Shown here: positions 33,801 through 36,800 of the stretch, in pieces
Layout: every line of letters starts with the position of its first letter
Numbering within the stretch: the first letter of the stretch is position 1
The notes under the pieces: model-generated
What the model was told of the DNA's origin: nothing
The model's input: only the letters and a program-made list of their open reading frames with translations
Databases searched by the model: none
Program-made: the position numbers and the translations under genes
Assembly (NCBI GenBank): GCA_051362555.1
Contig: CM120641.1
Coordinates: 36,462,401 to 36,526,400, forward strand
Origin: Lingula anatina
Lineage: Eukaryota; Animalia; Brachiopoda
DNA length: 64,000 nt
Reading direction: 5' to 3'

Positions 33801-36800
33801 ATATTTAAAATAGTTTGAAAAATAAAACCCTAAACAATGAAAACAGTAATAAATACAAAAGACAAATGTTAGCTTTATTAAAAGAGAATAGTAGAAACGT
33901 TAGGATTGAAACACACAAGTGTTAATATAAAATCAATAAGTACATGGAAACCAATGTAAGTCAGTGAAGGTTTTCTAACCCACTTCTTCTAAAGCTCCAA
34001 ACATTTTCAAGCACAAACACTCAAATTTTTCATATTGGAATACAACTTGACCAACTGATTGCCAGCCAATGTAAAATTTCAGGCAGGATGACCTTCAACA
34101 TGCAAGTTAACCATCACTGGTGACACCACTTGAAAAAAACTCACATTCATATTTTGAAGATCAAACGTATACATTGACAATAATGTTAACTGAAAAATGC
34201 TTGTATTCAAACTACCTTTAACTGCTCTGGAGACAATATCCAGGCATGATAAAGCATGTTTATATTTGCAAAAAGCAAGCAGCTTTTGCAGCTTGATTCA
34301 ATAATGTGTTTCAGATATCTTTAAAAATCCAATTGAAAAAACGGTGATCAGCTCACAGGAGTGTTTTACAGATCCAAAACAGCAATGGCAATTTCAAATA
34401 TTTAAAACTTAAAAATACCTTATTTTAGATGGTAGTAAACAAACAGTAAGGATATAGCTAAATGAGTTAACAAGAACTGGACCAAAGACTGATCTATGAC
34501 TACAAGGCAACTAAAACGTTTATGGACAAAGTTTTGAAAATGTAAAATCAGACAATCTTGGGGAAAAAAGCCAGAATTACCGTTTTAAAACATTATTTGC
34601 CCCAAATATGTTACGGTGAATTAACATTTAAAATAGTAATTGGTATTTTCAACAAAACACCCCTCCCCCCTTGATCACAGCAAGACTGCAGCAAAGCTTA
34701 GTGTTAAACCTGTGCTACATAAGAAGCAGAAGGTAACAGTGTACACTGCATACCCATCCCTCCTCATACGTCTGCCAAGGTCATCAGCCCTGCGCTTGGT
34801 TTCTGTAAAAACCAGGGTCTTGTTTTCCCTTTCAGCCATGATCTCCTCAAGGAGTTTGCCCAGCCTAGGAACAAATCCGCAGGCATATTTAAGCATTCTA
34901 TTGATAAAACTATTATATATACACATATATACGACATATATTCTTCCACTCTCACCCCTCCCTCCGCATCTTCCTCGTGATGTCTTCCACACGTCGCTTG
35001 GTCTCCACAAAAACTATAGTTTTTTTCTCTTTCTCTGCCATTATCTCCTCCAGTAGTTTACAAAGTCTGCGTTAACAGGAAAAGGAAACACATACTTCAA
35101 ATAACCGTTAATTTCATTTTTGATGGCAGAGTGATTGCAACTTATTGCCTCAGCATCCATGCCTCAACTAAGCAAACAATATATATATTCAAACATGTAC
35201 TCCAGACAAAACAAGTATTCTACGATCACTTTGTACAACTATCAACTACAGAGAGCATTTAATATTTCCCAGCACTGCTCTGGAAGAAAATCTTAAACAT
35301 ATTCCAATCCACTTTACCTATAGATATTAGGAACCAAATTCCAAATTGTGTAGTAGTATAAACAAACATCTGATCACACTTACTTGAAGTCCTTTTCATT
35401 ATCTGCACAAACATCTATGATCTGCAAGATATTGTGATTTGCTGACAACTGTAGTGCTCCAACATTGATCTGGACATATTCCTGCAAAAACTCCTCTGCC
35501 AAACTTCTAACTTCTTTGGGCCACGTAGCACTCCACATCAACACTTGACGGTCAGGCTAAAATGGACAGAGAAATGGATGCTTAAACCTTTTTGACATCA
35601 AACATTTTTAGCTACAGACACAAGTTGAATTAAATTTTTAGAGTTGCTTTAGGGGTATTAATAACTAACACTACTGTTTATTCATATTTGGAACATAAAT
35701 AGCACAAAATTTCCAGAGAAGATTTACTAATGTAGCTTCTTACCCTGATCTGTTCAATAATCTTCCTAATCTGTGGTTCAAAACCCATGTCCAACATTCT
35801 GTCAGCTTCATCTAACACGAGGTATGTACAACGCCGTAGATTAGTCTTGCCACACTCAAGCAAATCTATAAGCCTACCTGGGGTTGCAATGCAGATTTCA
35901 GCACCTGGGTAAAAGAAGTGATACATCATTACCTTCTATTCTGATTAGGGGTTATTTCTATCAGGAGGATGTATAATCAAAAATTACTGAAGTTTAATTC
36001 CACAGAAATAATTTTTTTCCCTGGCCTAACAACCATTTTTTCCATTAGTTAAACTAATAGTTAACTGTTATTCAATGTATCAACCATGGTTTTCAACTTA
36101 CCTCTATCCAAATCCCTAATCTGTGGTCCCTTTGGTGCTCCTCCATACACACATACATTCCTCAGTCTCGAAGTGGATCCAAACTGAGTAGCAACCTGTT
36201 GGACTTGCTGTGCTAGTTCTCTTGTTGGCACCAAAACTAAACACTATAAATTTAGAAAGATGTATTACTACGCATAACAGTTAAATCCATTCTAAGATGT
36301 TCAATATCACTAAAATAATCTCTTTTTTTTAATCTAATCAATTATGAGATATGATACTTACAATTGGTCCATCTCCTCTCTGAAGATATTCTTGGTGATT
36401 AATGTGAACAATAGCAGGTAGGATGAACTGAAAAAGAAAATGTTTACAATCAGCACTTTTTAACATGAATTATTTTCATTCAATTTAAGCACAAATGCAT
36501 CACAGCCTTTTCATGCAAACCCTATATAAAATATTTTAAAGCATGCATCACAAAAACTTACAGCCAGGGTTTTTCCTGAACCAGTTTGTGCAATTCCCAC
36601 TAAATCTTTCCCACTTAAAGCAATGGGCCATCCATAGGACTGTATAGCTGTTGGGTCTTTCCAGCCCAGCTGCTTGATGATATTCATGATGTAATCTGAA
36701 GAGCAACAATAAAATCAGTCGACCAAATCACTAAGCATTATTTATGCTTAACTACAATCAGGATGATATCTATCATATTTTCATTAAAAAAAAAAATACA

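Follow-up and report, generated by a model that had tools for sequence, protein, structure and literature searches.

The homologous mutually exclusive exons described in the accessible text of Hatje et al. 2017 (PMC5740500) and Abascal et al. 2015 (PMC4494069) are homologous to one another, equal in length and phase, have one end inside a secondary-structure element, and show bridging junctions without junctions that join the copies. A pair of exons in the brachiopod Lingula anatina is alike in all these respects. It differs in its host, a DDX5/17 helicase: the terms 'DDX' and 'helicase' are absent from the main text of both papers, and DDX5, DDX17 and Rm62 are absent from 10 text supplements of Hatje et al. 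The exon length, a multiple of three, is a further difference, since decay cannot then enforce exclusion. The exon pair in DDX5/17 is an addition to this known class.

Much work has been done on DDX5/17 as a regulator of splicing and of microRNA processing. In the literature searched, mostly without subscription papers, no exchange of a core-domain exon in it was seen, and no description of a pair like this one for DDX5, DDX17, Rm62, Lingula or crustaceans. The vertebrate proteins examined have a single version of the exon, and the p72 and p82 isoforms are presented as translation-start forms in the accessible part of a review (PMC12707520). The two Lingula products are present in RefSeq as dbp2-like isoforms X1 (XP_013380173.1, with exon A) and X2 (XP_013380174.1, with exon B). 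These are automatic annotations, and nothing was found with them that addresses exclusion, regulation or evolution. MetazExp, which names Lingula anatina in the part of its description that was accessible (PMC8728262), may also hold this splicing event already. Given that the mechanism class is familiar and that RefSeq already contains the two isoforms, the surprise is limited. The exchange itself is real; its extent varies greatly from sample to sample, and farmed crustaceans show a counterpart.

The reading preferred here, which we consider probable, is that A and B arose as tandem duplicates of the exon for motif IV, that they are spliced singly in a sample-dependent ratio, and that the likely outcome is a pair of functional helicases that share their catalytic core and differ slightly in a helix-strand-helix of the second RecA domain, the duplication being most likely independent of that in pancrustaceans. 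Its demonstrated parts are the two inclusion forms, the lack of a listed joint or skip form, the shift in ratio, and the constraint on the sequence.

The gene and its two motif IV exons

The window, a stretch of 64,000 nucleotides of Lingula anatina contig CM120641.1 (assembly GCA_051362555.1, positions 36,462,401 to 36,526,400), contains a DDX5/17 (Dbp2-like) gene on the minus strand, with a coding region at 30883..37833 and 13 exons per transcript. The nearest proteins are from Lingula anatina itself, and the top match in the protein search is a Lingula anatina dbp2-like protein that is 99% identical across a 79-residue exon. With either A or B, the coding length is 667 codons plus the stop. 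The two window isoforms each show 663 identities, 3 mismatches and 1 gap to their RefSeq counterparts (X1, P0121, for A; X2, P0002, for B). The gene encodes a DDX5/DDX17/Dbp2 DEAD-box helicase: both Pfam domains, DEAD and Helicase_C, are present in its product and the closest relatives are DDX5/17 proteins. A neighbour in divergent orientation (38953-39393, plus strand) has an RNase PH domain (Pfam E 1.4e-19) and is probably an exosome subunit.

Exon A (9a; 34956..35066, minus strand) and exon B (9b; 34754..34864, minus strand) are each 111 nt long and of phase 2-2. Exon A encodes residues 357-393 of isoform X1, covering the end of a helix, the motif IV strand and the next helix, and exon B encodes the equivalent residues of isoform X2. 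They are separated by a 91-nt spacer (34865..34955, minus strand), the shortest intron-like stretch of the gene (the next is 118 nt), whose splicing-out is never among the listed joints. The acceptor and donor are GCAG and GTGAGA for A, and CTAG and GTATGC for B. The coordinates, lengths, phase, open frames, splice sites and spacing that the sequence-only reading had given were all confirmed in the sequence.

The two exons are identical at 73 of 111 bases and 25 of 36 residues. Differences fall 8/5/24 at codon positions 1/2/3, so that 24 of the 37 in whole codons are at the third position, and 14 of the 36 codons differ synonymously. Synonymous sites are saturated (pS 0.88), alongside a pN of 0.19, which supports the earlier proposal of an old duplication under selection, here of the purifying kind. 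Within the window, tblastn with the isoform-A protein recovered exon B (E 5e-11) and no duplicate of any other exon in the gene. The variants listed for exon B include one silent change and one Arg-to-Lys. In their homology, neighbouring position, and like length and phase, A and B conform to the definition of homologous mutually exclusive exons.

Junction usage and the basis of exclusion

Nine raw-read runs carry the species label, of which eight were examined (X1, X2 and X4-X9), with 6-30% of each read. Reads resembling human sequence were dropped. The tables list joints from 3 reads at 2 start places and differences from 1 in 100. The samples of the runs are coded.

The constitutive exon 8, upstream of the pair (35384..35556, minus strand), is spliced from its donor at 35384 to either A or B (read joints 35066-35384 and 34863-35383). 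The acceptor of the 62-nt constitutive exon downstream, which begins WPAVCIHG (33697..33758, minus strand), likewise accepts A or B (read joints 33755-34953 and 33756-34752). The junction coordinates 35384 and 33758 proposed beforehand are those that the reads use. Upstream junction reads (A:B) were 712:14 in X1, 628:17 in X2, 18:21 in X4, 16:15 in X5, 27:44 in X6, 18:66 in X7, 12:52 in X8 and 26:54 in X9, in sum 1457 for A and 283 for B. Downstream, the corresponding counts were 75:0, 68:5, 5:4, 12:7, 2:28, 8:69, 11:59 and 9:61, in sum 190 and 233.

These counts agree with the three criteria (R1-R3) in the accessible text of Hatje et al. (PMC5740500). A joint between A and B is listed in none of the eight runs (R1), one or two reads falling below the listing threshold. 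Bridging reads run from the upstream exon to B (283) and from A to the downstream exon (190), each in 8 of 8 runs (R2 and R3). A joint skipping both exons (35384-33758) is also listed in none of the eight runs, at the threshold of 3 reads at 2 starts; with this threshold and 6-30% of reads sampled, rare forms with both exons or neither are possible. The mutual exclusion predicted from the sequence alone, with bridging junctions on both sides and no 34956-34864 junction listed, is what the eight runs contain.

The ratio of the two forms varies widely. The share of A among upstream junctions spans 98% to 19% between runs, and follows the study code: 97-98% in P1, 38-52% in P2 and 19-33% in P3. 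Heterogeneity between runs gives a chi-square of 962 (7 df) upstream and 272 downstream; as reads do not count independent molecules, the p-values exaggerate the significance. Per Gb read, A junctions range from 7.5 to 403 and B junctions from 8 to 40, and the near-complete shift to A coincides with a roughly 25-fold rise in A junctions per Gb while B remains at 8-40. Exon B is the major form in runs X6-X9. In X1 and X2 the downstream junctions have about one tenth as many reads as the upstream ones, and in X6 the two junctions disagree, with A at 38% upstream versus 7% downstream. In X7-X9 most reads are 95-99% alike to the window, pointing to a distinct population or a close relative, and both exons are used. 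Runs X1, X2 and X4-X6 closely match the window, so the A:B contrast among them does not come from sequence divergence. Because the split follows the study, library method or population could contribute to it.

In runs X1 and X2, read depth extends about 150 nt past exon B into the intron (34600-34753, minus strand), and X1 has 14 upstream and 0 downstream exon B junction reads, which are few. In A-dominated samples, transcripts with B may stay unspliced or terminate early. Another intron, outside the exon pair, is also of note as context. This 1383-nt intron lies behind the motif V codons (32114..33496, minus strand) and is partially retained in B-rich runs, with a depth of about 1/5 to 1/3 of exon depth in X5, X6, X8 and X9. 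Its retention is low in samples where A dominates: near its start there are 3 and 0 reads in X1 and X2, against 211 and 221 in the exon. By its position, it may be the conserved p68/DBP2 intron (cf. Iggo et al. 1991).

The lopsided exon B counts of X1, with depth reaching into the next intron, would fit a quite different account, namely two cassette exons, an assembly artefact in which two haplotypes or paralogues came to lie next to each other, or a pseudo-exon in decay. So would 3 of 11 RefSeq models in a Penaeus cluster that hold both copies, since exclusion there may be leaky. However, reads join each copy to the same flanking exons (upstream in all 8 runs); B predominates in X6-X9 and no joint or skip form is listed; the saturated synonymous divergence is far above allelic levels; the other exons of the gene are all single; and an independent annotation gives the same two isoforms. 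This account is largely refuted and very improbable. A and B are a read-validated, sample-dependent pair of homologous mutually exclusive exons.

How is the exclusion achieved? The form including both exons (705 codons) and the form including neither (631 codons) have no early stop and are open to the normal stop, and the exon length is divisible by three. Joint inclusion neither shifts the frame nor adds a stop, so decay cannot account for the absent joints, and exclusion enforced by decay was rejected. For the same reason, exclusion would be enforced during splicing. The donors in the region (GTAAGT, GTGAGA and GTATGC) are of the ordinary GT type and none fits the U12 consensus, which speaks against an incompatibility of U2 and U12 sites. 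In a motif scan of the spacer, the only yTnAy match puts a candidate branch point at an A at -41, about 51 nt from the exon A donor, with a weaker candidate at -25, about 67 nt from it. In the accessible text of Hatje et al. (PMC5740500), steric interference is limited to donor-to-branch-point distances under 50 nt, and the first candidate lies just above this limit. The predicted fold of the spacer is nothing unusual (z 0.72). Among 41 inverted pairs in this one genome, none stands out above background as a docking site and selector of the Dscam type.

Steric exclusion is the preferred reading of the mechanism, held at about an even chance, with control by splicing factors alone as the alternative. 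The 91-nt spacer would most likely leave too little room between the donor of A and the branch point of B for splicing, and a sample-dependent factor would choose between the A and B acceptors.

The exchanged segment in the protein

The two RefSeq isoforms differ at 11 residues, all within 358-392 (358, 368, 370, 373, 376, 382, 383, 385, 386, 388 and 392). F375 and E377-R381 are common to both, so that the F-x-E-T-K-R-R core is identical except at x. In an AlphaFold model of isoform X1 (40-row alignment), with a pLDDT of about 80-93 over the region, the exon starts within helix 350-365 and spans the strand 371-375 and the helix 379-391. This last helix, which follows motif IV, carries 5 of the 11 differences.

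Motif IV is placed among the RNA-binding motifs in the accessible part of a review (PMC12707520), and its Phe contacts a conserved Arg according to the consulted portion of PMC2948006 (Schutz et al.). In the human DDX17 core (PDB 6UV0-6UV4; PMC6953907), A and B match residues of about 299-333 (E 7e-12 and 2e-11). The RNA contacts of DDX17 named in the accessible text of Ngo et al. 2019 (PMC6953907) are R175, R250, G371 and R378. The last two probably correspond to Lingula G401 and R408, given their common 7-residue spacing, and these lie in the next, constitutive exon. With the motif IV core shared and two of the RNA contacts probably mapping to the next exon, the exchange would keep the core and alter its setting. 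It would alter how the helix behind motif IV packs or what its outer surface presents, fine-tuning activity or partner binding while the residues that touch RNA stay the same. A tuning of RNA binding or unwinding, as suggested from the sequence alone, is no more than possible. A functional difference between the A and B proteins is plausible on these grounds.

It is also conceivable, if somewhat unlikely, that the two exons are exclusive and regulated and yet functionally near-equivalent, each copy being kept since it is translated in some cells and the ratio being a by-product of splicing-factor levels. Both copies have the same motif IV core save for one position, the 11 differences are mainly conservative, and single-exon orthologues contain most of the residues seen in A or in B. 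In addition, purifying selection on both copies would be expected whenever both are expressed. However, among 27 single-copy exons (11 mollusc and 16 other), K370 of A (exon position 14) occurs in 0, E383 of A (position 27) in 1 and G386 of B (position 30) in 0. The shift to A, with its rise in A junctions beside a steady B, also argues against near-equivalence, and a redundant copy would sooner be lost than long retained. With their 11 differences placed around motif IV, the two proteins open the function of the helix to direct test.

The exon in other animals and the origin of the duplication

Two versions of the exon are found in protein models of pancrustacean DDX5/17 from Penaeus, Homarus, Scylla, Portunus, Panulirus, Procambarus, Petrolisthes, Armadillidium and the springtail Orchesella. 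Single models holding both copies come from Penaeus, Homarus, Armadillidium, Petrolisthes and Orchesella; those of shrimp, lobster, woodlouse and springtail involve the same exon, with the same 37-residue spacing. Equal-length isoform pairs that differ within the exon alone occur in Penaeus (P0264/P0267, 16 residues in 330-360) and Scylla (P0276/P0281, 15 in 346-376). The pancrustacean pairs are of the same exon, but their copies are more diverged (16-21 of 36 residues identical, against 25 of 36 in Lingula), and some models include both. The Penaeus cluster (n=11) has both copies in 3 models, copy 2 only in 5, copy 1 only in 2 and none in 1; among 15 listed of 39 in a crab and crayfish cluster, 10 have copy 1 and 5 copy 2.

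A single version per species was found in 44 of 45 proteins from 12 mollusc clusters (the remaining Mya model is without the motif), in 25 of 29 from 3 chelicerate clusters (four without the motif), in Daphnia (8), Artemia (2), Hetaerina (3), Frankliniella (4) and one lamprey cluster (10 of 10 proteins). These counts, made after 13 fragments under 150 residues had been removed, are of annotations, in which an unannotated copy can be missed. The sequence-only reading had not anticipated the crustacean and springtail pairs, nor that both isoforms stand in RefSeq. Its statement that vertebrate DDX5 and DDX17 have a single such exon agrees with the lamprey cluster and with the lack of a vertebrate two-copy model among the top protein-search matches. 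No named annelid, phoronid, nemertean or second brachiopod was among the protein matches.

Among the best 150 of 162 representatives of 50% clusters, there was no new two-copy case, and most showed single-exon reading frames with the same boundaries. As these boundaries are so widespread, the exon itself is old. A metagenome scan of 179 candidate stretches gave one locus, an intron-less DDX5-like sequence with a single copy of the region, which does not inform on the pair. Several apparent two-copy cases were rejected. In Brassicogethes P0151 and in Batillaria P0003, a single model joins two genes. The high-scoring Branchiostoma floridae P0152 contains three repeats of the exon before that of motif IV, not of the motif IV exon itself, which is probably an oddity of assembly or annotation. 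P0399 was put aside because its repeat is an identical partial stretch.

In a free tree of the exon (53 rows, 36 columns), B groups with scallop exons (96/95) and A weakly with an insect type (86/59). The two are not grouped together, and neither joins pancrustacean copy 2, which sits with branchiopod, mayfly and Rm62-type exons (95/77, unstarred). AU tests on the 36 columns rejected none of the constraints A+B (0.385), A+copy 2 (0.349), B+copy 2 (0.23), A+copy 1 (0.426) and all copy 1 (0.478). We consider it quite probable that the brachiopod and pancrustacean duplications were independent; two duplications are favoured on parsimony. With its 36 columns, the tree does not separate a parallel origin from a shared one.

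Several of these results would also suit a pair ancestral to protostomes, of which molluscs, chelicerates, branchiopods and insects lost a copy or split the copies between paralogues. The pancrustacean two-copy models concern the same exon, at the same 37-residue spacing, B groups with mollusc exons and A elsewhere, and neither A with copy 1 (p-AU 0.43) nor A with copy 2 (0.35) is rejected; repeated loss of such clusters in myosin genes is described in the accessible text of Hatje et al. (PMC5740500). However, many losses would be required, as the clusters with a single version number 12 in molluscs, 3 in chelicerates, 2 in branchiopods, 2 in insects and 1 in lampreys; copy 2 sits amid pancrustacean exons with no Lingula copy joining it, and A+B as one clade is likewise not rejected. 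An ancestral pair is considered unlikely. On the favoured reading of independent duplications, the repeated duplication of one exon offers a clean case for weighing parallel against ancestral origin of exon pairs.

The insect Rm62-type exons (P0151, P0155) group with pancrustacean copy 2, and the other insect type (P0036, P0093) does not. Glu at exon position 27 is common to the insect Rm62-type, pancrustacean copy 2 and Lingula A. From these alignments, it is possible that the exon pair was split between insect paralogues. If so, and this is a lead only, it would be a case of 'splice isoform separation', the term for paralogues dividing such a pair in the accessible text of Abascal et al. 2015 (PMC4494069). 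A broader and rather doubtful proposal is that the motif IV exon is a recurrent switch point, with separate brachiopod and pancrustacean duplications, an identical Asp-to-Glu change in the helix behind motif IV (in Lingula A, malacostracan copy 2 and the insect Rm62-type), switching by cell state, and insects fixing the variants in paralogues. If true, Lingula would supply, in its two proteins, a natural minimal pair for probing the role of this helix in a DEAD-box helicase.

Another stretch of the protein also varies in a bivalve. In Mercenaria mercenaria, the equal-length isoforms P0022 and P0138 have 13 differing sites within residues 108-132, which is likely a second homologous exon swap in DDX5/17, judging from the protein alignment. 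The swapped stretch matches the window exon 36943-36847, which is single in Lingula.
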